NCBI GenBank assembly: GCA_021208605.1
Contig: JAJOJK010000003.1
Location: 73,481-137,480, forward strand
Source of the DNA: Candidatus Woesebacteria bacterium
Lineage (GTDB): Bacteria; Patescibacteriota; Microgenomatia; UBA1400; UBA1396
DNA length: 64,000 nt
Direction: 5' to 3'
The position numbers and the translations under genes were made by a program. Below, piece by piece: positions 5,588 through 64,000 of the stretch (position 1 is its first letter; each line of letters starts with the position of its first letter). The notes beneath the pieces are model-generated. The model had not been told where the DNA came from and did not search any database. It saw only the letters and a list, made by a program, of their open reading frames with translations.

Positions 5588-7195
5588 ATGTCAACGCTGC
5601 AACCAGATCTGGTGTGGGCCGATGTTTTGCGCTCACTTTCAAAATCGATGTCACCATCGACGTTTTCCACGTTTGTAAAGCCGTTGTCGATATCCTCCAT
5701 TGAAGAAGTTGGTGAAGACCGCGCCATTATTCGCTTCCAAGCCGCCAGTCCCTACGTCGCCCAACAAGCCGAGATGCGCTGTTACGCGCAGCTCAAACAA
5801 GCGGTCGATGAATCAACGCAAAAAAAATGCGATCTCACCTTTGTCAGTGCAGCCGAAAATGCGGTACCAACATCTCCAGAACCAGAACAACCAGTCGCGT
5901 CCGCAGCAGAACCACCGTTTCACCAACCGCAGACCCAACCACAACCGAGCCAAGCCAACGGCCCACTCGCTGACTCTATCCACAATGCTTCATTCCAAAG
6001 CCTGAACGACAAAGCTCCGTCCAACAACTTCATTCCGCCTACACAAACTTCCGCACCGCGCCGTCCGCAGTCAAACACGCACTCCGCGCCACAAAATGCC
6101 GCGCCGTCGCTGTTCTCCATGAACCAAATCAAAATGCCGACGGTGGATCGCTACAAGCTCGCCGCCCAAAAAGCCCACCTCCGCGAAGACTACAACTTCG
6201 ACACCTTCGCCGTCTCTGGCTCCAATGAAATGGCCTATGCCGCCGCCCAAGCCGTGGCGCAGTCTCCGGGGTCAGTCTACAACCCGCTGTTTATTTGGGG
6301 TGGAGTTGGCGTAGGGAAAACGCACTTAATGCAGTCGATTGGCAACGTCATTTTGAAAGCCAACCCAGACACTCCGCTCACCTACTGCATGGGCGAAGAA
6401 TTTTTGAACGAGATTATTTCCGCAATTAGAAACAAGAAAACGATCGAGTTCAAAGAAAAATACCGTCAACTCAAAGTTCTCCTCATTGACGACATTCAGT
6501 TTATTGCCGGCAAAGACACCGCCCAGGAAGAATTTTTCCATACATTTAACGCCATCACACGCGCCGGCGGACAAATTATCATGACCTCGGACCGACCACC
6601 GCACGAGATCCATCCTTTAGAAGATCGCTTGCGCTCTCGTTTTGAAGGTGGACTCACTATTGATATTCAGCAGCCCACTTTTGAACTCCGCACCGCGATT
6701 CTGCTCATTAAGTCACAAAAGATGGGTTTGGATCTCAGTATGGATTTGGCGCAAATGGTGGCAGCCGAAGTGGAAAGCACACGCAAACTAGAAGGCGTAG
6801 TGTTTAAGATTCATAGTGCCCATCGTTTCCGCAATCGCCCACTGGATCAGAATTTGATTCGCGAAGTTTTAGGCGAAGAATCTAGACCAGTCATCGCGAA
6901 GAAAAAACTGAAGCCTTCGGCCATCATGCGAGCGGTCACCTCTCATTTTCACATTAGTGCCAATACGCTGCGCGGAAATTCGCGTAAAAAGGACTACGTC
7001 ACCGCACGCCACATTGCTATGTTTTTAATGAAAAAAGAACTCGACTTGCCGTATACCGAAATCGGCAACAATTTCGGCGGTCGGGATCATTCTTCCGTGA
7101 TGCATGCGGTCAGCAAAATCGAGCAACGACTAGAAGCAGATGCTCCACTGAGCCAAGATGTTTCAGCTATTCGGGTGTCTCTCTCAAGTTTGTGA
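5588..7195 (+). CDS. dnaA: Chromosomal replication initiator DnaA
   Basis: Walker A GGVGVGKTHL; Walker B/sensor region LLIDDIQFIAGKDTAQEEFFHTFNA; arginine finger and C-terminal DNA-binding helix (TARHIAMFLMKKELDLPYTEIGNNFGGRDHSSVMHA). Long P/Q-rich N-terminal linker. AGGAAAG Shine-Dalgarno upstream. Confidence 0.95.
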   Translation: MSTLQPDLVWADVLRSLSKSMSPSTFSTFVKPLSISSIEEVGEDRAIIRFQAASPYVAQQAEMRCYAQLKQAVDESTQKKCDLTFVSAAENAVPTSPEPEQPVASAAEPPFHQPQTQPQPSQANGPLADSIHNASFQSLNDKAPSNNFIPPTQTSAPRRPQSNTHSAPQNAAPSLFSMNQIKMPTVDRYKLAAQKAHLREDYNFDTFAVSGSNEMAYAAAQAVAQSPGSVYNPLFIWGGVGVGKTHLMQSIGNVILKANPDTPLTYCMGEEFLNEIISAIRNKKTIEFKEKYRQLKVLLIDDIQFIAGKDTAQEEFFHTFNAITRAGGQIIMTSDRPPHEIHPLEDRLRSRFEGGLTIDIQQPTFELRTAILLIKSQKMGLDLSMDLAQMVAAEVESTRKLEGVVFKIHSAHRFRNRPLDQNLIREVLGEESRPVIAKKKLKPSAIMRAVTSHFHISANTLRGNSRKKDYVTARHIAMFLMKKELDLPYTEIGNNFGGRDHSSVMHAVSKIEQRLEADAPLSQDVSAIRVSLSSL

Positions 7196-7995: not shown

Positions 7996-8009
7996 GATTG
8001 AGAACATTT

Positions 8010-9116
8010 ATGAAATGCAGAGTTGATCAACCAACACTTCTATCTACTCTTAACGAAGCCAGTCGATTTGTCGCTACCAAAGCTTTGAATCCATCGTTTG
8101 GCGGTATCTTATTGGAAACAGACGAAACCCATTTGAAGATTCGCTCTACTACCGGACAAGCCCTCTATGAAGCCAGACTCTTAGCGCAAATTGAAGAACC
8201 GGGAAAAGTGTTAGTGCCCTCTTCTCTGTTCTTATCGGCAGTGAAGTCTCTGGTGAAAGGGGAAGTCACCCTCGCTGTGGAGAGTGATCACTTACTGATT
8301 CAGCAAAATACGGTGGATTTTACCGTGGCCATCATGTCTTCAGAAGACTTCCCTGATTTTCCTGATCTCGGCAGCACGAAAGAATTTTTACTGCCTACAG
8401 AGAACTTCATGGCCGCTACCGAAAAAATCCTCGTGGCCGCCAGTAAAGACGAAACCAAGCCAGTTTTAACTTCAGTTTTGCTCGAAATGAGTCAACCCAA
8501 CGCTATGGTGACCAGCGATGGTTTCCGCTTGTATCGCTCCAATGTTGATTTGTCGCTCGATATGTCAGAGAACTTGCTGTTACCGGCCCGCTTATTGAAA
8601 GAAGTGCTGCAGATCGTAAAAAAAGCCGGCGAGTCGACGATCAAGTGCTTCTGGGATACTGCATCTGGACAAGTGTTGTTTGAATTGCCAGAAGTGAAGG
8701 TCCAATTGAGCGTAGTTTCCGGCGATTTCCCGCCGTACCGGTCCATTATTCCGGAAAATTCGAGTTTTTCGTTTGTGGTTGATCGCGAGGACTTCATGCA
8801 ACGTTTGCAACAAGTGATGGTTTTGGCCAAAGAACTGTCGAGCATTGTGGTCTTTGAGGCCAAAGATGGACAAATCGAACTCAGCTCACAAAGCAGCGCC
8901 CGCGGAAAATCCCAAGCTCTGCTCTCCCCGCTTTCGGCCGACGGCGAGATTCCTCGCTTTGCCTGTAATGGCACGTATGTACTCGATTTTCTGGGAACCG
9001 TTGACTCTGATTCGATCACCATTACCGGCGTCGACCCACTGAAACCAGTAATCTTTGGAGTCCCCGATGACGCTTCTCTTCTCTACTTGGTGATGCCGTT
9101 TAAGTTGCAGGAGTAG
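8010..9116 (+). CDS. dnaN: DNA polymerase III beta sliding clamp
   Basis: Canonical position after dnaA. About 370 aa with three-domain clamp architecture. The ORF track start (7998) is a TTG; the ATG at 8010 (MKCRVDQ...) is preferred. Confidence 0.85.
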   Translation: MKCRVDQPTLLSTLNEASRFVATKALNPSFGGILLETDETHLKIRSTTGQALYEARLLAQIEEPGKVLVPSSLFLSAVKSLVKGEVTLAVESDHLLIQQNTVDFTVAIMSSEDFPDFPDLGSTKEFLLPTENFMAATEKILVAASKDETKPVLTSVLLEMSQPNAMVTSDGFRLYRSNVDLSLDMSENLLLPARLLKEVLQIVKKAGESTIKCFWDTASGQVLFELPEVKVQLSVVSGDFPPYRSIIPENSSFSFVVDREDFMQRLQQVMVLAKELSSIVVFEAKDGQIELSSQSSARGKSQALLSPLSADGEIPRFACNGTYVLDFLGTVDSDSITITGVDPLKPVIFGVPDDASLLYLVMPFKLQE

Positions 9117-38861: not shown

Positions 38862-39023
38862 CTAAGGAGTGTCGGTATGAGTCTCACGCCTCATTCCGGA
38901 TTACGAGCAATCGTAACAAAACTCTGAAGTCCTGTGGACATATGTGCCCAGGCCTTCCTGCCAGTCCGCATGTTGTTTGTGTCAAAAACCCAAATGAGTC
39001 TTTACAAGAACAGATGACAAAAG

Positions 39024-39047
39024 AACCGCTATTGAGCGGTTTTTTTG
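39024..39047. terminator. Rho-independent terminator ~160 nt downstream of the 16S (could also terminate the convergent HD gene)
   Basis: accgct / attg / agcggt followed by ttttttt. Confidence 0.6.
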
Positions 39048-39083
39048 TGCGTGTTTTGATTATGTGCTTTTGATATAAAAAGT

Positions 39084-39611
39084 TTATTGTTGGAAAACAG
39101 AAATCAAAAAAGTAACGTGTTCACTCAGTGGAACGCCAATAAGTTTGGCGCCACTTTCGATATCTTCCCGAGGAACAGCGGCCGCGAACGCTTTGTTTTT
39201 TAATTTCTTTTTTACGGAAGACCACTTCATGCCCTCAAACCTACCTGGGTGAACCTTTGCTACCGCATCCATGAACCCAGAAATTTCATCACAGGCGAAC
39301 AGATACTTTTCGATATTGGTTTCTGGTTGCTTACCGGTTCGTGCAGGTGCATGGGCACGAATAGCATCAAGAATTTCGTCTGAGATCCCGTGTGCTGGCA
39401 ATATTTCGTCACAGGCTTTGTTGGGATGTTCGTCAGGATATTTTTCCCAGTCAAGATCATGGAGAAGGCCAGCAATGTACCAGTCTTCGCTGTTTTCACC
39501 GAGTTTGGTGGCATACGCTTCCATGGCTTGCGCAACCATCTCGCAATGTCGGCGGAGAGCTGGATTATCAATATATTCAGTGAGGAGTTGCTGAGCTTCG
39601 GATTTGGTCAT
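39084..39611 (-). CDS. HD-domain phosphohydrolase
   Basis: HD signature (AGLLHDLDWEKY) with upstream His; 175 aa. Located inside the 16S-23S interval on the opposite strand. Confidence 0.6.
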   Translation of the reverse strand: MTKSEAQQLLTEYIDNPALRRHCEMVAQAMEAYATKLGENSEDWYIAGLLHDLDWEKYPDEHPNKACDEILPAHGISDEILDAIRAHAPARTGKQPETNIEKYLFACDEISGFMDAVAKVHPGRFEGMKWSSVKKKLKNKAFAAAVPREDIESGAKLIGVPLSEHVTFLISVFQQ

Positions 39612-39704
39612 AGGGGCAGTATAGCAAGTGTTGTTTGTAGGGAGCGGTGCGGTTTCTGCTTACGATTTTGGCAATCTATGATACAATCAGTATCTCTTAC
39701 TCTT

Positions 39705-39778
39705 GAGGGTATAGCTCAGTTGGTTAGAGCGCAGTCCTGATAAGACTGAGGTCCCTGGTTCGAGTCCAGGTACCCTCA
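39705..39778 (+). tRNA. tRNA-Ile (anticodon GAT)
   Basis: Cloverleaf gagggta/taccctc acceptor; anticodon loop ctGATaa; T-loop ttcgagt; no encoded CCA. Confidence 0.85.
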
Positions 39779-39793
39779 CTATTTTGTGTTTTT

Positions 39794-39820
39794 GAGAGGG
39801 ACCGACCCTCAGGCCTATAA
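39794..39820. repeat. REP-like repeat copy (gagagggaccgaccctcaggcctataa)
   Basis: Same family as 18602..18628. Abuts the transposase stop codon. Confidence 0.6.
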
Positions 39821-40252
39821 TTTATAACCTCTCCCAACATGTTTCCAGTCTGAAAAGCCAGCATTTATCGGGTTATCAAGTATATATTGTCTCGTTTTGG
39901 CAACTTTCGCTGGCGGTACATACGCAGCTTTGTAAATATCTTGAAAAAGCCTCCCAACTCGTCCGTATTTTTTATTGATATACATGACATATCTGGTCAT
40001 GGTTTTTCGCATGAGGATTTCTATTGCTCTCGTAGTAACCTGGTATACCAGAAAGTGAAAATGGTTTGGCATGAGGCAGAAAGTATCTACAATTACTTCG
40101 CAGTACTCTTCTTGAAGTACCCTGCGCGTAATGGCTCGAAATACTTCATAATCTTGTTCCGAAAAGAATATTTCTTCTTTATTATTTCCACGGTTATATA
40201 TGTGAAAATAGCTGTTTGGTTGGTAATACTTTACCCGATTAATTGCTGGCAT
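39815..40252 (-). CDS. IS200/IS605-family Y1 (HUH) transposase, RAYT-like
   Basis: YFHIYNRGNNKEEIF, CLMPNHFHFLV (HuH motif), ...GRLFQDIYKAAYV (catalytic Tyr region), ILDNPINAGF. 145 aa. Flanked by REP-like repeats on both sides. Confidence 0.8.
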   Translation of the reverse strand: MPAINRVKYYQPNSYFHIYNRGNNKEEIFFSEQDYEVFRAITRRVLQEEYCEVIVDTFCLMPNHFHFLVYQVTTRAIEILMRKTMTRYVMYINKKYGRVGRLFQDIYKAAYVPPAKVAKTRQYILDNPINAGFSDWKHVGRGYKL

Positions 40253-40291
40253 GAAGCGATGGTAGCAAGAGAAGTGAACAAAAATATTACA

Positions 40292-40315
40292 GGCTTGAGG
40301 GTCGGTCCTTCGAGC
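40292..40315. repeat. REP-like repeat copy, inverted orientation
   Basis: Reverse complement gctcgaaggaccgaccctcaagcc matches the REP core ggaccgaccctcaggcc. Confidence 0.55.
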
Positions 40316-40327
40316 TCATAAAAAAAG

Positions 40328-40401
40328 TGGACCCAAGGGGATTCGAACCCCTGACCTCTTCATTGCAAATGAAGCGCTCTAGCCAGCTGAGCTATGGGCC
40401 C
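40328..40401 (-). tRNA. tRNA-Ala (anticodon UGC), on the strand opposite the rRNA genes
   Basis: Reverse complement gggcccatagctcagctggctagagcgcttcatttgcaatgaag...ccttgggtcca. Anticodon loop ttTGCaa; G3:U70 Ala identity pair present. Confidence 0.85.
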
Positions 40402-40446
40402 AAGAAGGGTATTATATCCTACTACTTGGATATTGGTAAGTAATGT

Positions 40447-40471
40447 TTATAGGCCTAAGGGTTGGTCCTTC
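40447..40471. repeat. REP-like repeat copy, inverted orientation (variant)
   Basis: Reverse complement ggaccaacccttaggcctataa matches the REP consensus with one substitution. Confidence 0.5.
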
Positions 40472-40485
40472 ATCCATCGGTCGAT

Positions 40486-42177
40486 CTACCGTCGCAGCAT
40501 AAAGTACACGCCCATCCCCATCAGGCCAAAACCGGTCAAAGCCAAAGCGACCGTATTTTCTATCGCTCCAGCTACTGGCAGCGTTTCTACCGGTGAGCTA
40601 GGAGTGGGGGTTGGATTGACGGCTACGTCACAGAGACAGTCAGTTTCGCCAGTACAGGCGCTGTTACGGCACATGCCGCCGTTACAGACAAGGCCAGAAG
40701 AACAGTCGGCGTTGGTGCTACAGGCGTTGTTACAGCTGGCCAATGGAGTAGGTTGTGGGGTTGGTTCAGGCGTGGCCGAAGGCGTTGGTGTGGCACTTGG
40801 TGTCGGTGTCGGACAGAGACAGTTCGCTTCTTCGGAACAGGAAGGATTGCGACACATGCCGTCGTCGGAACAGGTGAGACCGTCGCCGCAATCGGCATCG
40901 CTCACACAGGCTTCGCTACAAGATGCCGGTGGAGTTGGCGTCGGTGTCGGAGTAGCCTGTGGGGTGGGTTTGGGAGTTGGCTTTGGAGTGGGGTTCGATT
41001 TTTGTGTAGTGGTCGTCGTGGATGGTGCACTGCCACAGCTATTATTTATAATGGAAAATTCTCCACAGAGTTGGCCATCACGGGAACCGCCAACACAGAC
41101 TTGGTCTATTTGCCCACATCCGCCGGCATAGGAAACCGCATCAGCGCGAGAAGACTTGCGAGAGCCATTTTGCTCACAGACGAGTTGTCCATTACTAGTA
41201 GAAGAGGTGTGCAAGCTGTCGCATTTAAAGGCATACCAGCCGGAGCAAGAGCCGCCAGGACATTGTTGGGAACCAGTTTGTCCGGAGTCTTCACACTTAC
41301 GATTTCCTGAGGTGCCCTGACAGACAGCGGTGCCACAGCAGTTGTCGGACAGGCCGCGCTCGGAACCACAGGCTTGTCCAGCGGAGACACAAGCAGTTTT
41401 TCCTGACGATCCGGTGTTGGATCCCGATGACTGCTCAACCCAAGAACCATTTTTACAAACGTACTTTACGCCGTCGCGGGTGCCGGTTTGGCCGTCGTTA
41501 CATTCATTATTTGATTGACCGCCGTCACAAGTGTTGCCGCCGTCGATCCATTGACCAGAACACGTACACTCACAGTTCGCAACACCGTAGTCACCTTTGC
41601 CACAGAGTTTTCGGCCGCCAACGGAACCGCCCCGGACAGAGCTTTTTCGATCGCGACAAGTACTAGAACAATTGCTGGCGTTATAGTTACAACTTCCACC
41701 AGATGAACCACTGCCACCGCTAGAACCAGAACTACCACTGCCACCAGAGCCGCCGCTTTTACAGCCTGCACAACCAGAATCACAGCCTGCAATCCAAGCT
41801 TCCGGATCCGGTTGAGCCGAAGCACCAGCACGACAGTCATTCATACAGGCTTCATAGCTGGCTCGAGGACAGCTACTCGCTTGTTGGCGTAAGTCTTGTT
41901 GTTGCTGCGAAAGATACACTGCCGCACCAATACCAATGAGGACTACCACTGAAACGAAAACAGCGGCAATGATGCCAAAGCGTTTTTTCATGAATTTTTG
42001 CAAACCAGAGAGTGATCTTCCAGAGGATCCAGAAGAACCAGAAGAAGAGGGTCGTGATGAGTTGTTATTTTGCGGTTTTTCTTTTTTAGGCGCCGCCTGT
42101 TTTCCACCTCTTTGATTGGCGTTTTGAATAGTATTAATCACGTCTTGTGATTGTGGTGGAATGTAGGCAGGACTCAT
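40486..42177 (-). CDS. Cys-rich, Pro/Thr-linker surface protein with N-terminal signal anchor and C-terminal LPVAG sorting-signal-like motif
   Basis: N-terminal TM (IIAAVFVSVVVLIGIGAAVYL). Duplicated ~40-aa cysteine module SC(S/N)xACxxxADCxxGLxCxxGMCRNxxCxxExxCLC, separated by PTPTP linkers; Gly/Ser runs. C-terminus ...VETLPVAGAIE + hydrophobic helix + RR (sortase-substrate architecture). Confidence 0.65.
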   Translation of the reverse strand: MSPAYIPPQSQDVINTIQNANQRGGKQAAPKKEKPQNNNSSRPSSSGSSGSSGRSLSGLQKFMKKRFGIIAAVFVSVVVLIGIGAAVYLSQQQQDLRQQASSCPRASYEACMNDCRAGASAQPDPEAWIAGCDSGCAGCKSGGSGGSGSSGSSGGSGSSGGSCNYNASNCSSTCRDRKSSVRGGSVGGRKLCGKGDYGVANCECTCSGQWIDGGNTCDGGQSNNECNDGQTGTRDGVKYVCKNGSWVEQSSGSNTGSSGKTACVSAGQACGSERGLSDNCCGTAVCQGTSGNRKCEDSGQTGSQQCPGGSCSGWYAFKCDSLHTSSTSNGQLVCEQNGSRKSSRADAVSYAGGCGQIDQVCVGGSRDGQLCGEFSIINNSCGSAPSTTTTTQKSNPTPKPTPKPTPQATPTPTPTPPASCSEACVSDADCGDGLTCSDDGMCRNPSCSEEANCLCPTPTPSATPTPSATPEPTPQPTPLASCNNACSTNADCSSGLVCNGGMCRNSACTGETDCLCDVAVNPTPTPSSPVETLPVAGAIENTVALALTGFGLMGMGVYFMLRR

Positions 42178-42373
42178 TACCGTATAATGGCAAATTTTTT
42201 GTTAAGAAACAAGACGCTGCTCGTGCGAACACACCGATACACATATAACGATACATATATAAGGAGTACGCACTCAGAACGAAGTCAAAGCGACATATTA
42301 AGGGTTTCTATTGGACTTTTTTACTATAAATACGTGTTTTTCAAAAACCAGTGCTCCAGAGAAGTTTCTTCTC

Positions 42374-42407
42374 AAAACTCATACTTGCACCCCGTGGCAT
42401 GGATGGT
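42374..42407 (+). promoter_or_regulatory. Sigma70-like promoter candidate upstream of the 23S (TTGCAC-16-TATACT)
   Basis: ttgcac cccgtggcatggatgg tatact, ~350 nt before the 23S 5' end. Confidence 0.35.
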
Positions 42408-42758
42408 ATACTACTAATCCTCTGCACATGACACTTGTTTCGGTCAGGCAGATGAGGGACAACCTTCACCGGTCTCTCTCATTTACCAAAGAAACACTTT
42501 TACTTGCTACATGCTCAGGTTCCTTGTGAACGAGCCCCTGTACACGTCATAACGCATTAAGCCTATGGCGCTTACGTGTATTGTGCGGGGAACAGAGTGG
42601 TGACACTTTGTCGCTCGTGAACAAGTAGAGATTTAAACAAGAATTTAAACTTAAAGTAAAGTTTTCAAAAACGGTCGCTGCGATTGTTTTTTTGGTTTAC
42701 CAAAACAGCAATCAATATATATCAGCAGTCGTTTCATGAGAATTGATCAAATATATCG

Positions 42759-45655
<2,897 letters not shown>

Positions 45656-57606: not shown

Positions 57607-58251
57607 ATGCAGGTAATGCCACGCCTTTTTTCAAAAAAGAACACTGCCCGTCATGGTGTCACGTTAATTGAGATGCTTATTGCCATGACGTTTCTCGCCA
57701 TCATGATGGTGGTGGCGTTTATGCAGGTTTCTCGGTATATCAACCAGAGTAGAGACGTGGAGCGGAAGACGGATTTGGAAAAATACCGCATTGCGCTGGA
57801 AGAATATTTCGCCGACCACGGCCAGTATCCGCCAACTTCACTGATGCAAAATTGTGGTTCCAAAGAAATTGTTCCGTATTTGCCAGAGGTATATTGCGAT
57901 CCGTTGTCGGGTGATCCGTACCGATATGTGCGCACGCAGAACGGTGCCCATTACGAACTCTGGACGACGTTGATTACCGAAGGCGATCCAGTGATTGAAC
58001 TGCGCGGCTGCGATGTGGGGTGCGGTCCGGACGACAACGACGACGGAGCCGGCGATTACAACTACGGTATCAGCGATGAACAGGTCGCCACCGGCGAAGG
58101 AGCGGAAGCAGGGTTCGTAGAACCGTTCTGTTCCTCTGGTGGAGTGCGCTATTGTATTGCCGGGCAATGTTCGAATTGTTGTCCCGGTGACATCTATCGG
58201 TGTAACAGTACCGGTACGGCGTGCTATATTGACTACAGTTGCCGCGAGTAG
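57607..58251 (+). CDS. Type IV pilin/pseudopilin-like protein (class III signal peptide), Cys-rich C-terminus
   Basis: Prepilin peptidase site ...RHG|VTLIEMLIAMTFLAIMMVVAF with Glu at +5. Confidence 0.65.
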   Translation: MQVMPRLFSKKNTARHGVTLIEMLIAMTFLAIMMVVAFMQVSRYINQSRDVERKTDLEKYRIALEEYFADHGQYPPTSLMQNCGSKEIVPYLPEVYCDPLSGDPYRYVRTQNGAHYELWTTLITEGDPVIELRGCDVGCGPDDNDDGAGDYNYGISDEQVATGEGAEAGFVEPFCSSGGVRYCIAGQCSNCCPGDIYRCNSTGTACYIDYSCRE

Positions 58252-58275
58252 AGAAGTCTCGTTGGCGGTACGAAT

Positions 58276-58860
58276 ATGCACAAAAATCGCACAGTTGTAG
58301 CTTCATCTTTTTTTCCCGCTCGTTTTTTCAGTCGAGGCGGATTCACATTGATTGAGTTGATGGTCGTGATCTCGATTATCGGGATTTTGACGGCCGCGAT
58401 TGGCGGTAATTACATGACTTCCCGGGTGCGGGCGCGCGATTCGGAGCGTAAGAACGCTTTGTCGCAGATTCGCAATGCGCTGGAAATTTATTTTAATGAC
58501 CACGGTCATTATCCAGAAGCTATCGACGGAAAAATTCTCGGACTCGACTGGGGTGGGCCACTGATCGACAGCAATACCACAACCTACATGGTGCAGCTCC
58601 CGAGCGACTCGCGCGCGCCCAACACGCAGTACTACTACGAAGTTGATGGAACAGATGCTCTGTTCACAGACCAACTCAAATATCGTTTATATGCTCGACT
58701 TGAAAACCCCAATGACGCTGACACTGATCTGGATGGCGACGGCGATGTCGGCGACGAATATGACGGCACCAACGGCGACGGCCAAGCCAAATACTGCGGC
58801 GATGACTACTGTAACTACGGCATTCCCGCCCCGACGACCACAATGGAGGAAGTATGGTAA
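58276..58860 (+). CDS. Type IV pilin-like protein
   Basis: ...SRGG|FTLIELMVVISIIGILTAAIG, a canonical N-terminal pilin helix. Confidence 0.7.
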   Translation: MHKNRTVVASSFFPARFFSRGGFTLIELMVVISIIGILTAAIGGNYMTSRVRARDSERKNALSQIRNALEIYFNDHGHYPEAIDGKILGLDWGGPLIDSNTTTYMVQLPSDSRAPNTQYYYEVDGTDALFTDQLKYRLYARLENPNDADTDLDGDGDVGDEYDGTNGDGQAKYCGDDYCNYGIPAPTTTMEEVW

Positions 58861-59285
58861 AACACAGCCAATTTGCGCCCCAGTTCGACCAAAATAGCCG
58901 TCAAGGCTTCACTTTGGTGGAGTTACTCATCGTGATTTCGATCATCGGTATTTTGGCGCGTTTTTTGTTTGTCAACTTCGCCGAGGTTCGTATTCGCGGT
59001 CGCGATACCCAACGCAAAAATGACTTAACTCAAGTGAAAAAAGCCCTCCGTCTTTACTACAACGATTACCAAAGTTATCCGGCGCATGACGAGGCAAATC
59101 GGATTCTTGGCTGCGGGAGCGATGGTGCTGAACCCTGCGCCTGGGGAAGTCCTTTTGAGACCGGCTCGACAACCTACATGGGAGAGTTGCCAGCCGACCC
59201 AATTAACATTGGCGCCCAAGTCTATTCTTACGAACAAGTTGATGGCGGCGAAGATTTTCCGCTTAACCGCCAACCTGGAGAATAA
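58854..59285 (+). CDS. Type IV pilin-like protein
   Basis: ...RQG|FTLVELLIVISIIGILA; overlaps the upstream stop (coupled). Confidence 0.7.
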   Translation: MVKHSQFAPQFDQNSRQGFTLVELLIVISIIGILARFLFVNFAEVRIRGRDTQRKNDLTQVKKALRLYYNDYQSYPAHDEANRILGCGSDGAEPCAWGSPFETGSTTYMGELPADPINIGAQVYSYEQVDGGEDFPLNRQPGE

Positions 59286-59435
59286 ATCTGATCAGCAGGC
59301 TGTTCCGAGCCAAGAGCGGTGTGGGATTGTTGAAGACGAGATTGATGACTCCACCTTCATGATATGTGCCAACTAACCTGACTTGTGAGTCGAAGTATTT
59401 TATTTCAGAAATGTGCTCTTAGAAATACGCTAGAA

Positions 59436-61631
59436 CTAGAAACCGACGTTTTCCGGTAAGACAATCGAACCGTCAGAATTTTGTGTACCTTCGTTGGGAG
59501 TTTGGTCTTCTGTGGACTCTGGCTGCGGTTGTTCTTGGAGCGGGTCGCTCTCCAAGAGCTCGTCGAAGCTGGGATCATTGGGGTTTTGCGCAGGGGCGTT
59601 TTCGGGCACACTCGGCTGTTGTGGGGTGTCGAGAAGATCGGCATTTTCGCTACCGGCTTCGTAGGTACCGGCCGCGTCGTCAGCATTTCCGTCTGATTGT
59701 TGCGCTGCCGCGGCATTTTGCGCTTCGGTTAAAGCACCTTGCACCAGGACAAAGTCATCATCACTTTCTTCCAGGAGCGACAAAGCGCGTTGGAAGGCTT
59801 GCGTGGCTAGGCCGGGTTGTTCCATGGCCATGAGGGCAACGCCGTAGCGATAGTAGGCCACGTGCCAGTCTGGCTTCAGTTGAATAGCTTGTTCGTAGTA
59901 GCGCAGCGACTGATCTGGTTGGTTGAGCACAACATACAGATTTCCGAGTTGCGCGCGGAGCTGAGGCGAGAGCGGGTCAGTCTGGATAGCCTGAATGAGC
60001 GCCGCGGTGGCCCAGCGAGAAGATCCTTCCACATCCAGCATATTGCTGTACAGACTGGAGAGGTGTTCCCAATTTTCGGTTTCGGTGGGGTTTATTTGCG
60101 CGGCCATGCGAGCTTCTCGAATGGATTGTTGCAAAAGTTGCGCAAATACTTGACGCTGCTCTTCGGTCAGGTCGCCATTTTGGGCCAGACCACGCGCAAT
60201 CGCGAGATTGGTTGAGGAGTAGGAGCGGCGATACTGCGTGTTGTACGGAGAAAAACGGATGGCTAATTGTTGCAAATCATACGTGTTTGTAACCTGATTA
60301 TTCTGCGCGGACAAAATAGACCGCGCGTAGAGATACTCAGCCGCATATGTTTTGCCAGCGAAGTAGGTGAGGGCCAAGGCACCAGCAGCAAAAACAGCGG
60401 CGGTGGCGTAGGCAAATCCGGCATGTGTTTTCTTGGATTTCAGTTGACCAGAGGGGCCGAGCTGGATGGCAGAGAGAAGCACCACTAAATCTTGAGCCGT
60501 GGTGGGGTCTTCAGCGCGGGCTTCCTCCATGATGGCCAGCAGTGTGAGCGTTAAGACAATAATGGTGGTCGCACTGAGCGGCGCTACCCAGAATAAAAGA
60601 ATTTGAATCAGGAAAAAGACAAACAAAGTCGGGTGTTTTCGGAATACCTGGCGACCTGTCCAGAGTCCACTGGCGTAAACACCCAACCAAGCAGTGAAGC
60701 CAACGGCACCAATGGTGGTGAGGGCGTGGAGGGCCTCGGAGCTACTGGCGCGGAAGCGGAGTGCCCAGAGTTCAGACATGTTGTAGGTGACGTCGCGGAA
60801 ACGATGGAATGCGGACAGGAAGCTTTCCGGTCCAATCCCAAAGAGTAATCGTGGCAGTTGTTTCCAGTTTTCGATCGCAATTCCCCAACCGAATTGATAC
60901 GGTAAGAGCACCGGACGCACATCTGGTTTCAGAACAATACTAATGAGTACGCCGGCGAGTGTGGCAAACAGAAAAGCGGTGAGTCCGAGTCGGACAGGAG
61001 AAGTTGCGGCTTCGGATTCTGGTGAAGTTTCTTTTTTGGTGGCCGAGAAATGTTTCCAGATACTGATCCCGTTCGCCAAAACGACGGGAACCAAGAGGGC
61101 CAGCAGAACCGCTGGTGATTCAGCCAGGGAAAAACTGATGTTGGTCGGGAGTTGGGAGCCAAGGAATCGATTCAGCAGCGCGGAGAACGTGAAATCACCG
61201 GGCACTACTAACTGCCACCAGACAACGATGGACAGAGCGGCAGTTCCCCAGGTAAGTCCACGTAACAGGTGTGACCAGCGGAAGCCACTAAAGGTGCTAA
61301 AACCAAAGAGCAGGACGACGCTCATAGCGAGCAAGGACAAGAAGCGGCCGCTCAGTTGGAACGGCGTGTTGCTCGCCATAACCGCGGAGATGACTGTTGC
61401 CACGACTAACAGAAGGGCGCTGATGTTGACGGGAGACAAAGAAAACAAAACACGTTTCTCGCGCACGACGCGCACAATCCAGAAAGCAGCCAAGGCAATC
61501 GCCGTGACCATGAACAAGAATTGTTTCTGCACGCCAATAGAGTCCGGGATCAACGGAATGAACCAGATCGGAGCCAAAAAGGCTAAGGCGGTCAAGATTC
61601 CGGAACTCAATTTGTGGTGCAGGTGTTGCAT
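59436..61631 (-). CDS. Polytopic membrane protein of the Wzy_C/O-antigen-ligase superfamily (tentative) with C-terminal TPR repeats and an acidic tail
   Basis: About 12 TM helices in the N-terminal 420 aa, then TPR-like repeats (AIQLKPDWHVAYYRYGVALMAMEQPGLATQAFQRALSL). Convergent with the pilin cluster. Confidence 0.45.
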   Translation of the reverse strand: MQHLHHKLSSGILTALAFLAPIWFIPLIPDSIGVQKQFLFMVTAIALAAFWIVRVVREKRVLFSLSPVNISALLLVVATVISAVMASNTPFQLSGRFLSLLAMSVVLLFGFSTFSGFRWSHLLRGLTWGTAALSIVVWWQLVVPGDFTFSALLNRFLGSQLPTNISFSLAESPAVLLALLVPVVLANGISIWKHFSATKKETSPESEAATSPVRLGLTAFLFATLAGVLISIVLKPDVRPVLLPYQFGWGIAIENWKQLPRLLFGIGPESFLSAFHRFRDVTYNMSELWALRFRASSSEALHALTTIGAVGFTAWLGVYASGLWTGRQVFRKHPTLFVFFLIQILLFWVAPLSATTIIVLTLTLLAIMEEARAEDPTTAQDLVVLLSAIQLGPSGQLKSKKTHAGFAYATAAVFAAGALALTYFAGKTYAAEYLYARSILSAQNNQVTNTYDLQQLAIRFSPYNTQYRRSYSSTNLAIARGLAQNGDLTEEQRQVFAQLLQQSIREARMAAQINPTETENWEHLSSLYSNMLDVEGSSRWATAALIQAIQTDPLSPQLRAQLGNLYVVLNQPDQSLRYYEQAIQLKPDWHVAYYRYGVALMAMEQPGLATQAFQRALSLLEESDDDFVLVQGALTEAQNAAAAQQSDGNADDAAGTYEAGSENADLLDTPQQPSVPENAPAQNPNDPSFDELLESDPLQEQPQPESTEDQTPNEGTQNSDGSIVLPENVGF

Positions 61632-61669: not shown

Positions 61670-62752
61670 TTACTCAGTGATGCGCCAGAATAGCGTAACA
61701 TTTTCTTCCAGAGGGTTGAAGCTCTGAATGGTGAATCCTTCGCCAGATTTTCGGCTGGAAACGCGGAACGGTGTGTGTGGTTGCGAAGCCGAGTTCGGCG
61801 AGACTTCAACGGTAATCTGCATAGTGTCGGTCAAACCGGTGAAGGGGACAAAGATTTCGGTTTGCTGCGCTGGCAAGACAACTTCGCCTTGGAGCGCGTT
61901 GTCGGCGGTTTTGGTGCCGATGGTGGTATCGGAACCTTCTTCGGCGTCGGCGACAATTGGTCCGCTCGCCAAGTTATTGTTGGCTTGTTGCGTCGGGAGC
62001 TGGTCGAGGACGCTTTCTTCTAAGATGTTGACATCTTGCACCCCAAGCGCTTGGGCAATAACTAAGTCTTGATCACCTTTGGCGGCGAGTTCTGGATTGA
62101 TGGCGCTTGCCGTGGTGTAGATGCGGGCCCGAAGGAGGAAGCCGAGACCGTTGGTAGGATCGAGATCGATCGCGGTGTTGGCGGCAGCGAGGGCTTCATC
62201 GAGGTACTGCATGATGGAGTCGCGATCAGCGTTCGTTTGGGTGCCGGCTGTGGACTGGGAAAGCTGAATCGCCTTGCGCAAAAATCCCTGGGCGAGCGTC
62301 AGATGGTAGCGGTAGGCTTTTTGTTCGGTGCTGAGGATGACCTGGGAATTCACGAGGTCGGTAGCGGTGGAGTTCGTCTCTGGGGAAGAAGTGGTGGCGC
62401 TGACGAGTTGGGCGTCGACAGGAGTGTCGGTGGTCGCGGTGTCGCTTTCAGGTGCAGTTTCGGAAAAAGTGCTCGCGATTTGATTCCCTGGCTGTTGTTG
62501 CTGGGCCAGGTAGCTGCTGACGAGTTGTTGGTTGTGCGCGCGCAGTTGTGGGGTGGTCGGCTGCGACCAGAAAATGAATCCTAACGGCAAGACGGCCACG
62601 AGCGAGAGGGCCATCCAGGGGCGCAGTTGCGTTACGGAGAGTTCACTCGTGGCGGAAGCCAGACGAGTAAAGGAAACTTTCCAGGCTGGCTCGGGAGAGC
62701 GAAGCAGGGAAGTGTCAATCGTAGCAATTTCTTGAGGCGGCAGGCCGTACAT
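61670..62752 (-). CDS. Hypothetical membrane-anchored protein with TPR-like region
   Basis: N-terminal TM (LSLVAVLPLGFIFW), T/S-rich spacer, helical repeats. Confidence 0.4.
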   Translation of the reverse strand: MYGLPPQEIATIDTSLLRSPEPAWKVSFTRLASATSELSVTQLRPWMALSLVAVLPLGFIFWSQPTTPQLRAHNQQLVSSYLAQQQQPGNQIASTFSETAPESDTATTDTPVDAQLVSATTSSPETNSTATDLVNSQVILSTEQKAYRYHLTLAQGFLRKAIQLSQSTAGTQTNADRDSIMQYLDEALAAANTAIDLDPTNGLGFLLRARIYTTASAINPELAAKGDQDLVIAQALGVQDVNILEESVLDQLPTQQANNNLASGPIVADAEEGSDTTIGTKTADNALQGEVVLPAQQTEIFVPFTGLTDTMQITVEVSPNSASQPHTPFRVSSRKSGEGFTIQSFNPLEENVTLFWRITE

Positions 62753-62902: not shown

Positions 62903-64000
62903 CTAGTTAATAATCCACCAATTAAAACTCACATCCTCCGCCACCGCGCCGTCCAGATTAACCTCGAAGTAGCCTTCGTTTTCTTCAGTTTCTGGATTCT
63001 CACCGGATTTGGCACCGACGTATAAGACTTGGTTTTGGGTGGAGCTGGTTGGTGTCAGGTAAATCAGAGACTCATTGGAAATAACCGTGTTGCGGACGAA
63101 GAACTTCGTCTGGCCGGCTTTGATGGTACCGGTGCCGGTGGTGGAGTTGGTGACTATGGAAGTGGAGATTTCTTCATCGGTGGATTTGGCTTCTTCGGCG
63201 GCGATTACCAGGCGGCGGAAGCGAGAGGATCCGGTGGCGGAGAAGGCGGCGATTTCTTGGTTGTCGATACCGCGCAAGACGAACTCACTTGGGGTGATTT
63301 CTGATTGCTCTTCGTCGTTTTCGTTGACTGAAGTATTCAAGCTATTGGCGCTCGCCAGTTGGACTTCGAGGTTATTGTTTGGTAACGGCTGGAGGAGTGA
63401 GGCGAAGAGCGATTGCTCGGCGACAGTTTCACCGGCGAGTGTGGTGCGGCCGGTAATGATGACGTCGCGGTTGATCTCAACGCCGCCGTTTTCGGAGATG
63501 ACTACGGCGTCGGCCATGAGGGAAAGTCGACCGGTGCCCGTGGATTGAATGGCGAATGTATCTGGAGTAAAGGCAAGTTCGGAACCTGACAGGCTTGTAC
63601 CGTTCACCAAGAGAGCGCTGTTCAAGGAAAGGCTTTGGGCGGTGAGGATGCCGTCAATATTGACGTCCATGGCAATGTTCCAGGCGGCCGAGCTGGTGGC
63701 TGGGGTTGGCGTGGGCGAGACGGTGCCGAACGCATCGCTGGCAGAAGGTTGAGTGGCTGGAGCGGTTTCCTCAAGCAGAGAAGCGATGAGTGATTTGAGT
63801 TCATCATTTTCGGGGACAGAAACTTCCGCTGATTGCGTGGCGAGAGTGTCGCGTTCGCGGGAAACGATGTTCCGCACGCGGTCTTCCAGTCCAGAGATGC
63901 TGTCGCTAGAAATTGAGCCTTCAATACGGTTGGCGTAGAGGGTGCCAGAGATAGAGGCGTCGTTGCTGGCGAGTTGTTCGAAGCGGGCGGATTGCGCGGT
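62903..64000 (-). CDS. Hypothetical S/T-rich secreted or surface protein; N-terminus lies beyond the window end
   Basis: The ORF track shows 62903..63877 from a GTG, but the same frame stays open to position 64000 (…TAQSARFEQLASNDASISGTLYANRIEGSISSDSISGLEDRVRNIV...). Confidence 0.45.
   Translation of the reverse strand, partial: TAQSARFEQLASNDASISGTLYANRIEGSISSDSISGLEDRVRNIVSRERDTLATQSAEVSVPENDELKSLIASLLEETAPATQPSASDAFGTVSPTPTPATSSAAWNIAMDVNIDGILTAQSLSLNSALLVNGTSLSGSELAFTPDTFAIQSTGTGRLSLMADAVVISENGGVEINRDVIITGRTTLAGETVAEQSLFASLLQPLPNNNLEVQLASANSLNTSVNENDEEQSEITPSEFVLRGIDNQEIAAFSATGSSRFRRLVIAAEEAKSTDEEISTSIVTNSTTGTGTIKAGQTKFFVRNTVISNESLIYLTPTSSTQNQVLYVGAKSGENPETEENEGYFEVNLDGAVAEDVSFNWWIIN

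Follow-up and report, generated by a model that had tools for sequence, protein, structure and literature searches.

In a stretch of 64,000 nucleotides from a Candidatus Woesebacteria bacterium (hereafter the window), three tandem type IV pilin genes, designated p1, p2 and p3, are followed by the gene of a large polytopic membrane protein of 731 amino acids (aa), which occupies positions 59436-61631 on the minus strand. Upstream of the latter, on its own strand, lie a gene for a 360-aa protein and the 3' end of a giant surface-protein gene (Table 1). In a preliminary description of this locus, based on the DNA letters and translations, the 731-aa protein was likened to the Wzy_C/O-antigen-ligase superfamily, and the whole was proposed to be a module for O-glycosylation of the pilins. 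The analysis presented here confirmed the superfamily homology and, at the same time, revealed that the protein has lost the catalytic hallmarks of that superfamily while conserving a different set of residues at its outer face.

Table 1. Features of the pilin/731-aa protein locus, with positions in the window; an arrow marks the predicted cleavage site, and L009 is one of the related loci used for comparison.
Feature	Position	Strand	Properties	Basis
Pilin p1, 214 aa	57607..58251	+	RHG↓VTLIEM; Cys-rich C-terminal domain CCPG..RCN	Open reading frame, N_methyl, TIGR02532
Pilin p2, 194 aa	58276..58860	+	RGG↓FTLIEL; Asp-rich DxDxDGDGD; C..CNY disulfide loop; Ser/Thr-rich C-terminal tail	
Pilin p3, intact frame 174 aa	58854..59376	+	RQG↓FTLVEL; frameshifted, reading frame as called ends at 59285	
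731-aa protein: disordered acidic Pro/Gln-rich tail, aa 649-731 and stop codon	59436..59687	-	Ends VLPENVGF	pLDDT <50
731-aa protein: extracytoplasmic TPR domain, ~aa 447-648	59688..60293	-	Helical repeats	Pfam TPR_1/2/8; pLDDT ~90; Foldseek TPR matches
731-aa protein: membrane domain, aa 1-423	60363..61631	-	11 transmembrane helices, N-terminus inside, WaaL-like fold	AlphaFold, Foldseek, hhalign, loop charges
731-aa protein: conserved extracytoplasmic loop, aa 235-307	60711..60929	-	W249, E254, K257, G265-x-G267-P-E-x-F, R279, N284, W289; S297-S298-E299 at canonical H-N-E position	
360-aa protein, one N-terminal transmembrane helix, without family match	61670..62752	-	38 nt upstream of the 731-aa gene	
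Giant surface-protein gene, 3' end, at least 365 codons, continuing beyond the window edge	62903..64000	-	Frame open to 64000	86% identity to the C-terminus of the L009 giant protein

The three small proteins are indeed type IV pilins, since all of them exceeded the cut-offs of both N_methyl of Pfam (22.0, 30.9 and 32.7 bits for p1, p2 and p3, respectively, against a gathering score of 21.2) and TIGR02532 of NCBIfam. Each has a class III signal peptide, with Gly at -1, Glu at +5 and a hydrophobic N-terminal helix, and with predicted cleavage at G↓VTLIEM in p1, G↓FTLIEL in p2 and G↓FTLVEL in p3; the signal G↓FTL(I/V)E, which had been ascribed to all three, is thus found in p2 and p3, whereas p1 has Val instead of Phe at +1. 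Past the N-terminal helix, all three gave weak matches to pilins of the GspG/T2SSG type, and p2 matched a GspG-type model with an E value of 4.5e-14. Translational coupling, likewise suggested for the entire triplet, fits p2 and p3, which overlap by 7 nucleotides (nt) (58854-58860), but not p1 and p2, between which 24 nt intervene. When the reading frames and the DNA of p3 were compared with the orthologue in related loci L001 and L009, a 1-nt insertion was located near position 59263, such that the conserved C-terminus ...CGIVEDEIDDSTFMICAN, including a pair of Cys residues, is read in the +1 frame and ends at 59376; the frameshift denotes either a pseudogene or an assembly error. With the frame of p3 corrected, about 59 nt remain between the pilin genes and the 731-aa gene, and the convergent arrangement stands as it was described. 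The p2 orthologues retain a Ser/Thr-rich tail after the C..CNY loop, of the type C..CNY-x-x-S-S/T-x-N-T-T. It is to be noted that the Asp-rich stretch of p2 (DxDxDGDGDxGDEYDG), which has the appearance of a calcium-binding site, recurs in the closer orthologues, and that the Cys-rich end of p1 (CCPG..RCN..C) recurs in most of them. No prepilin peptidase, assembly ATPase or platform, or other type IV pilus machinery was found among the open reading frames (ORFs) of the window that were scanned.

The 731-aa protein corresponds to the NCBI entry LRY65_00505 ('hypothetical protein'), with a reported identity of 100% and one residue that differs from the window translation. The full-length AlphaFold model, obtained with an alignment of 14 sequences, had a predicted local distance difference test score (pLDDT) of 77.8 and a predicted template-modeling score (pTM) of 0.76, and a model of the membrane domain by itself had values of 73.9 and 0.79, respectively. 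In the full-length model, 11 transmembrane (TM) helices are accompanied by a 73-residue loop (aa 235-307) that contains short helices, and are followed by a long helix that leads into approximately 200 residues of tetratricopeptide repeats (TPR). The protein is therefore polytopic as had been noted, with 11 rather than about 12 TM helices in the AlphaFold models. As basic residues are enriched in the short predicted inner loops, the N-terminus is assigned to the cytoplasm, and the conserved loop, the TPR domain and the C-terminus to the outside. The TPR repeats were verified by Pfam (TPR_1, E 6e-10) as well as by the modeled helices, and the best NCBIfam match of this domain was PilW, although this was a weak, generic match that reached 30.6 bits where the cut-off is 154. 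Such a TPR extension had been considered atypical; it is not, as TPR motifs at the C-terminus are on record for O-oligosaccharyltransferases (O-OTases) of the WsfB and PglL type (PMC2943079), TfpW carries an external TPR domain (bioRxiv 10.1101/2020.04.19.049825), and proteins that combine Wzy_C with TPR are common. The acidic tail, in turn, was corroborated by the composition and predicted disorder of aa ~650-731. This linker outside the cell is otherwise unconserved, and is capped by the motif (I/V)VLPxDVGF (last 8 codons, 59439-59462), which is common to the 11 closest homologues and looks like a docking or sorting peptide.

Pfam and NCBIfam searches with either the whole protein or its membrane domain returned TPR matches only. 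The preliminary description had named the lack of a Wzy_C hidden Markov model (HMM) match as grounds for abandoning its proposal, and such a match was formally lacking, even though homology was demonstrated by profile-profile comparison and by fold. The membrane-domain sequences of the ten homologues closest to the protein were combined into a family profile for an exhaustive profile search, which placed at least 2,491 clusters (50% identity) in the family at E<=1e-3, and 1,069 at E<=1e-10. Nearly all members are 650-730 aa long with the same architecture, and they are annotated only as 'hypothetical' or TPR proteins. Among 68 members that were sampled for conservation counts (approximately 25% overall identity), TPR repeats were present in every one, and the Pfam threshold for Wzy_C was passed by seven (7/68); it was also passed by a distant relative, P0013. 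For comparison, a membrane-domain profile was prepared from a canonical set of 25 Pfam-positive 'O-antigen ligase/TPR' proteins, and hhalign aligned the family membrane profile to it over 349 columns with a probability of 99.5% and an E value of 1.2e-22. The probability was 97.8% with a core-only profile and 0.1% with the reversed template, which served as a control, while the family profile against the single sequence of E. coli WaaL gave a non-significant 0.4%. In NCBIfam searches with six relatives, weak matches to O-glycosylation ligases were obtained for P0027 and P0127.

The structural comparison pointed in the same direction. When the membrane-domain model was submitted to Foldseek, the only significant match in the Protein Data Bank (PDB) was WaaL (7TPG, chain B), with an E value of 6.3e-4 and a probability of 1.0, albeit with a modest TM-score of just 0.43/0.47; FtsW was the runner-up with a probability of 0.82, and all others remained below 0.15 (AftA, 0.09). 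The same search with the full-length model was dominated by TPR proteins. Overall, the 731-aa protein is firmly placed by homology in the Wzy_C/O-antigen-ligase superfamily (GT121, GT-C_B), so that the earlier label of Wzy_C-like is borne out by the hhalign and WaaL fold matches and not by Pfam. However, as it lacks three defining features of the family, namely the HMM match and, as described below, the two Arg residues and the His residue, it is classed here as a diverged offshoot of the superfamily rather than as an O-antigen ligase or a member of the PglL/TfpO group.

In the canonical set, R217 of an S-R motif, R289 of an R-x-x-x-W motif and H338 of an H-N-E motif are each found in 25/25 sequences, and they align with R215, R288 and H338 of E. 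coli WaaL. In the WaaL structure, two Arg residues (R191/R265 in CmWaaL, R215/R288 in EcWaaL) bind undecaprenyl pyrophosphate, and the His is the proposed catalytic residue (PMC10920833); this His is reported to be indispensable to WaaL and the O-OTases alike (PMC9829042; PMC10920833), and its mutation is inactivating in TfpM and PglS (PMC9829042, PMC12800693). In the 731-aa protein, the first Arg was lost along with a deletion of two TM helices, where a short cytoplasmic loop (aa 199-211) is found instead. At the position of the second Arg the alignment has a gap, and the residue four places ahead of W249 is not a conserved basic one. The position of the His is occupied by Ser297, and in the family it is Ser in 50/68 and His in 0/68. 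The canonical mechanism cannot, therefore, apply to this protein. The frame of the motif H-[NSQ]-x9-G-x-x-[GTY] is retained, with Ser for His, as S297-S298-x9-G308-x-x-G311, and the query motif GIGPESF...AFHRFRD...W...SSEALHALTTIGAVG is a near letter-for-letter match to that of the canonical P0027, GSGLDTF...AFADQRT...W...HNEALNLLATQGALG.

The conservation that remains is concentrated in the outer loop, which is the active-site loop in WaaL and, across the 68 members, the best-conserved part of the protein. G265, G267, G308 and R/K279 are conserved in all 68, followed by N284 (67/68), a basic residue at K36 (67/68), W289 (66/68), K/R257 (65/68) and E/D254 (63/68); K36, E/D254, K/R257, R/K279, N284 and W289 are all situated at the outer face. 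In loop 1 (aa 23-36), P26 and K36 are the only conserved positions, and none of the conserved positions is acidic. At the level of sequence, this pattern argues for a binding or catalytic site that has been retained at the outer loop. Moreover, sister families of the GT-C1 type have Asp or Glu in place of the His (PMC10920833), and thus loss of the His does not by itself prove inactivity.

The neighborhood of the gene was examined in related loci, collected at one genome per species. A search pattern derived from the TPR domain returned 80 loci, of which 58 contained irrelevant TPR proteins and 22 contained true relatives (27-73% identity); only the latter were used, and their neighbors were identified by tblastn with the window proteins and by a motif scan. 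Full-length orthologues of p1, p2 or p3 adjoin the gene of the TM-TPR protein, i.e., the homologue of the 731-aa protein, in 15 of the 22, and the pilin-motif ORFs found by the motif scan nearly all lie within ~3 kb of it. The pilins are mostly downstream and convergent, but the triplet is upstream and divergent in L022, L024 and L025, and L027 and L029 have a p1-like gene upstream, in the same orientation as the TM-TPR gene. The adjacency described earlier thus recurs with the same pilin orthologues in 15/22 genomes and in at least two arrangements, and because the adjacency survives rearrangement, selection on the linkage is indicated. In homologues of 40-73% identity the layout is identical, with the giant gene, a ~360-aa gene and the TM-TPR gene converging on three N_methyl proteins, beyond which lie Obg, LysM-M23, Rho and RadA; in these closest homologues, the conserved layout could be inherited synteny.

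On its own strand, the 731-aa gene is accompanied by the two other genes of the cluster. The ORF list gave a 324-aa ORF at 62903-63877, but the true frame is open to the window end, and the giant protein is approximately 5,100 aa long in L001 and L009. Giant orthologues measure 2,767-5,139 aa, begin with a signal-anchor helix and carry domains of the DUF2341 and Laminin_G_3 families. The possibility that the giant protein is a modular pilin was considered and rejected, as the N-termini are ordinary signal-anchor helices with no prepilin motif. Twelve of the loci extend at least 8 kb upstream of the gene; in 11 of them, this upstream region contains, in the orientation of the TM-TPR gene, a giant ORF or a sequence homologous to the C-terminal region of the giant protein, and pilins were found in 8 of the 12. 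An orthologue of the 360-aa protein is at the same position in L003-L005, L009-L011, L015, L023 and L028, and this position is kept in relatives with a TM-TPR protein ~29-73% identical to that of the window; a C-terminal domain shared by the 360-aa and giant proteins was not supported by BLASTP, in which their similarity was not significant. Considering that the 731-aa gene is on the strand opposite to the pilins and in an operon-like array with the giant and 360-aa genes, the pilins are not its only candidate partner. Promoter and terminator scans yielded no more sites than in shuffled sequence.

Taken together, these data make it very improbable that the 731-aa protein is what the preliminary description took it to be, namely a PglL/TfpO-type O-oligosaccharyltransferase of canonical mechanism that is dedicated to the three pilins. 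Superfamily homology, the WaaL fold, the recurrent pilin adjacency in varied arrangements and the Ser/Thr-rich C-terminal tail of p2 are what one would expect of such an enzyme, but the missing Wzy_C match, the absence of the His in all 68 sampled members and the absence of both Args are not. The gene order is equally discordant, in that tfpO, tfpM and tfpW lie downstream on the pilin strand (bioRxiv 10.1101/2020.04.19.049825), whereas the 731-aa gene is convergent with the pilins, has the giant gene as its operon partner, and in one third of the related loci has no pilins beside it.

Another group of observations concerns glycan polymers. In all three examined loci of 810-aa relatives from Parcubacteria (L007 10001-14174, L008 10001-14200, L091 8001-12169), the gene is followed on the same strand by a 565-aa flippase gene of the MurJ/Polysacc_synt type, which suggests that this clade works with a lipid-linked glycan, and the distant relative P0013 adjoins two GH130 genes. 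Together with FtsW as the second structural relative, and with E/D254 and its basic partners, which resemble the catalytic pattern of SEDS and Wzy proteins (PMC10920833), these neighbors would suit a glycan polymerase or ligase with a non-protein acceptor, such as a cell-wall or envelope polymer, similar to Wzy, SEDS proteins or WaaL. In that case, the adjacency of pilin and giant genes would reflect only a shared envelope function or inherited synteny, and the syntenic neighborhood of the query clade (Obg, LysM-M23, Rho, RadA) indeed indicates that the linkage is partly inherited. Nonetheless, TPR is a protein-binding module for which a lipid or glycan acceptor has no need, the pilin adjacency outlives divergent and convergent rearrangement, and neither a flippase nor a glycan-synthesis gene was found in the locus of the window; we thus consider such a polymerase or ligase unlikely.

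The reading that we favor, with a probability of roughly 0.4, is that the 731-aa protein is a diverged enzyme of the O-antigen-ligase fold with a rewired active site, which would handle a glycan on behalf of its exported neighbors. It belongs to a conserved surface module of Microgenomates and other bacteria of the Candidate Phyla Radiation (CPR), in which a giant LamG/DUF2341 protein, a 360-aa single-pass protein and the TM-TPR protein are encoded beside a pilin triplet, and it would most likely work in the manner of the TPR-bearing protein O-OTases (WsfB/PglL type, or TfpO and TfpW in the case of pilins). The role of the membrane domain would be to offer a lipid-linked glycan on the outer side of the membrane, while the TPR domain, to which the WaaL-fold domain is joined by the extra eleventh TM helix, would capture an exported neighbor. 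This neighbor may be a pilin, in which case the most plausible acceptor, to judge from the substrates of TfpO and TfpM, is the Ser/Thr-rich C-terminal tail of p2, or it may be the giant protein, which on linkage grounds is an equally good candidate. In place of Arg/Arg/His, the conserved charged set of the outer face (K36, E/D254, K/R257, R/K279) could constitute the working site, as judged from its conservation.

Several results weigh against this reading. Arg, Arg and His are all missing from the 731-aa protein and from its family, and Ser297 alone would not be capable of the role of a general base. Wzy_C of Pfam (PF04932) had no match in the full-length protein at E<=1, nor in the membrane domain alone at E<=10, and sequence searches of the PDB with two family profiles and with P0013, the Wzy_C-positive relative, returned nothing; the TM-score to 7TPG, as mentioned, was modest. 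No pilin was nearby in 7 of the 22 related loci, and the more distant relatives have GH130 or MurJ genes as neighbors in their place. Lastly, the window ORFs that were scanned, as well as the annotated neighborhoods of the orthologues, yielded neither a phosphoglycosyl transferase nor a glycosyltransferase or flippase. Thus, of the proposed pilin O-glycosylation module, the superfamily homology, the fold and the recurrent adjacency have held, while the lost triad, the opposite strand and the lack of glycan genes among those ORFs speak against it, and a role of the 731-aa protein in pilin glycosylation is possible by analogy.

Some of these same results would be natural if the protein were no longer an enzyme at all. 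A pseudo-enzyme or scaffold, in which the WaaL-derived domain merely anchors a TPR domain and an acidic tail that bind and organize the exported neighbors, could help the pilins or the giant adhesin to cross, or attach to, the envelope, in loose analogy to PilF, PilW and Tgl. The loss of three hallmark residues and two TM helices, the lack of glycan-pathway genes nearby and the tight same-strand linkage to the giant and 360-aa genes are all compatible with this view, as are the conserved C-terminal VLPxDVGF, which suggests a protein-protein contact, and the finding of PilW, weak and generic though the match is, as the best NCBIfam match of the TPR domain. On the other hand, the loops of a dead active site usually decay, whereas here the outer loop is the best conserved of all, with three basic positions and one acidic, and inactivity is not proven by loss of a His for which GT-C1 relatives use Asp or Glu (PMC10920833). 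The scaffold is therefore a serious possibility, although a somewhat doubtful one, and the enzyme with a rewired active site continues to be preferred.

For locating and holding on to their hosts, CPR bacteria (Patescibacteria) depend on their type IV pili and on large surface proteins. The locus draws attention to a large, unannotated family with an origin in the glycosylation enzymes of pilins and S-layers, which has lost their triad, yet is still linked to pilins and giant adhesins. If active, its members would represent a new active-site solution in the WaaL fold and a route of protein glycosylation in CPR; if inactive, they would exemplify an enzyme fold that was recruited as an envelope scaffold. 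Either way, a concrete set of genes is now available for experiments. One may extend this to a CPR-wide, ligase-derived family, either glycan transferases of new mechanism or pseudo-enzymes, that couples a giant LamG adhesin to a type IV filament for host attachment of the episymbiont, although this broader scheme is speculative and probably not correct in full. In the literature, we found no paper that links O-antigen-ligase-like proteins to CPR pili, and a study of Saccharibacteria pili lists pilin glycosylation as untested (PMC11623550).

Elsewhere in the window, dnaA (5588-7195) is next to dnaN (7998-9116), and the cumulative GC skew is lowest at ~8-14 kb; because of this adjacency and the skew minimum, the window probably spans the replication origin. 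A distance of 3.9 kb (38862-42759) separates the 16S from the 23S rRNA gene, and the spacer contains an HD-domain ORF (39084-39611, minus strand), a tRNA-Ile gene (plus strand), an ORF for an IS200-like Y1 transposase (39815-40252, minus strand), a tRNA-Ala gene (40328-40401) on the strand opposite to that of tRNA-Ile, and an ORF of 563 aa (40486-42177, minus strand) that had no match in Pfam.

Among known systems, WaaL (PF04932, GT121, 7TPG) shares with the 731-aa protein the superfamily, the fold, the polytopic core and the large outer loop that precedes the G-x-x-G helix, including the common motif G-x-G-x-(D/E)-x-F ... R ... W ... (H/S)-N-E-x-L-x6-G-x-x-G. The 731-aa protein differs from it in having no Pfam match, a deletion of two TM helices and no triad, and in the addition of an eleventh TM helix together with a TPR domain outside the cell. 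CPR bacteria are not known to make lipopolysaccharide, and lipid A-core is therefore an unlikely acceptor. The closest relatives that Pfam recognizes are the canonical 'O-antigen ligase/TPR repeat' proteins of other phyla (such as P0027 and P0175-P0238), which have the same membrane and TPR architecture but 13 TM helices, with the Arg/Arg/His triad intact in 25/25.

Pilin-adjacent precedents are provided by TfpO, TfpM and TfpW (PMC9829042; bioRxiv 10.1101/2020.04.19.049825). The genes of TfpO and TfpM adjoin that of the pilin, in which the enzymes glycosylate a Ser/Thr at the C-terminus, next to the disulfide loop (PMC9829042); the Ser/Thr-rich tail after the disulfide loop of p2 is a candidate counterpart. 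TfpO/PilO, TfpM, PglL and PglS also share with the 731-aa protein a descent from the Wzy_C superfamily, but the known TfpO, TfpM, PglL and PglS have a recognizable Wzy_C and the essential His (PMC9829042), whereas the 731-aa protein has neither. Furthermore, the tfpO and tfpM genes are co-directional with the pilin gene and downstream of it, in contrast to the 731-aa gene, which is convergent, and to its relatives, which are convergent or divergent and rarely co-directional. WsfB, the S-layer O-OTase of Paenibacillus alvei, likewise combines a Wzy_C-type membrane domain with TPR in the absence of an outer membrane, and it acts on a large surface protein (PMC2943079), just as the operon partner of the 731-aa gene encodes a giant surface protein; however, WsfB has a Wzy_C that Pfam recognizes and is encoded in an S-layer glycan locus (PMC2943079), neither of which holds here. 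The layout is strikingly similar to that of TfpW, the pilin arabinosyltransferase of P. aeruginosa Pa5196/PA7, which has a cytoplasmic N-terminus, 11 TM helices and an external C-terminal TPR domain, and is encoded adjacent to the pilin (bioRxiv 10.1101/2020.04.19.049825). TfpW, nonetheless, has been modeled on ArnT, of the other GT-C subclass, and depends on a DDX motif in the first of its outer loops, whereas loop 1 of the 731-aa protein has no conserved acidic residue and the protein has no ArnT match; the likeness between the two is one of convergent architecture and not of membership in the same family.

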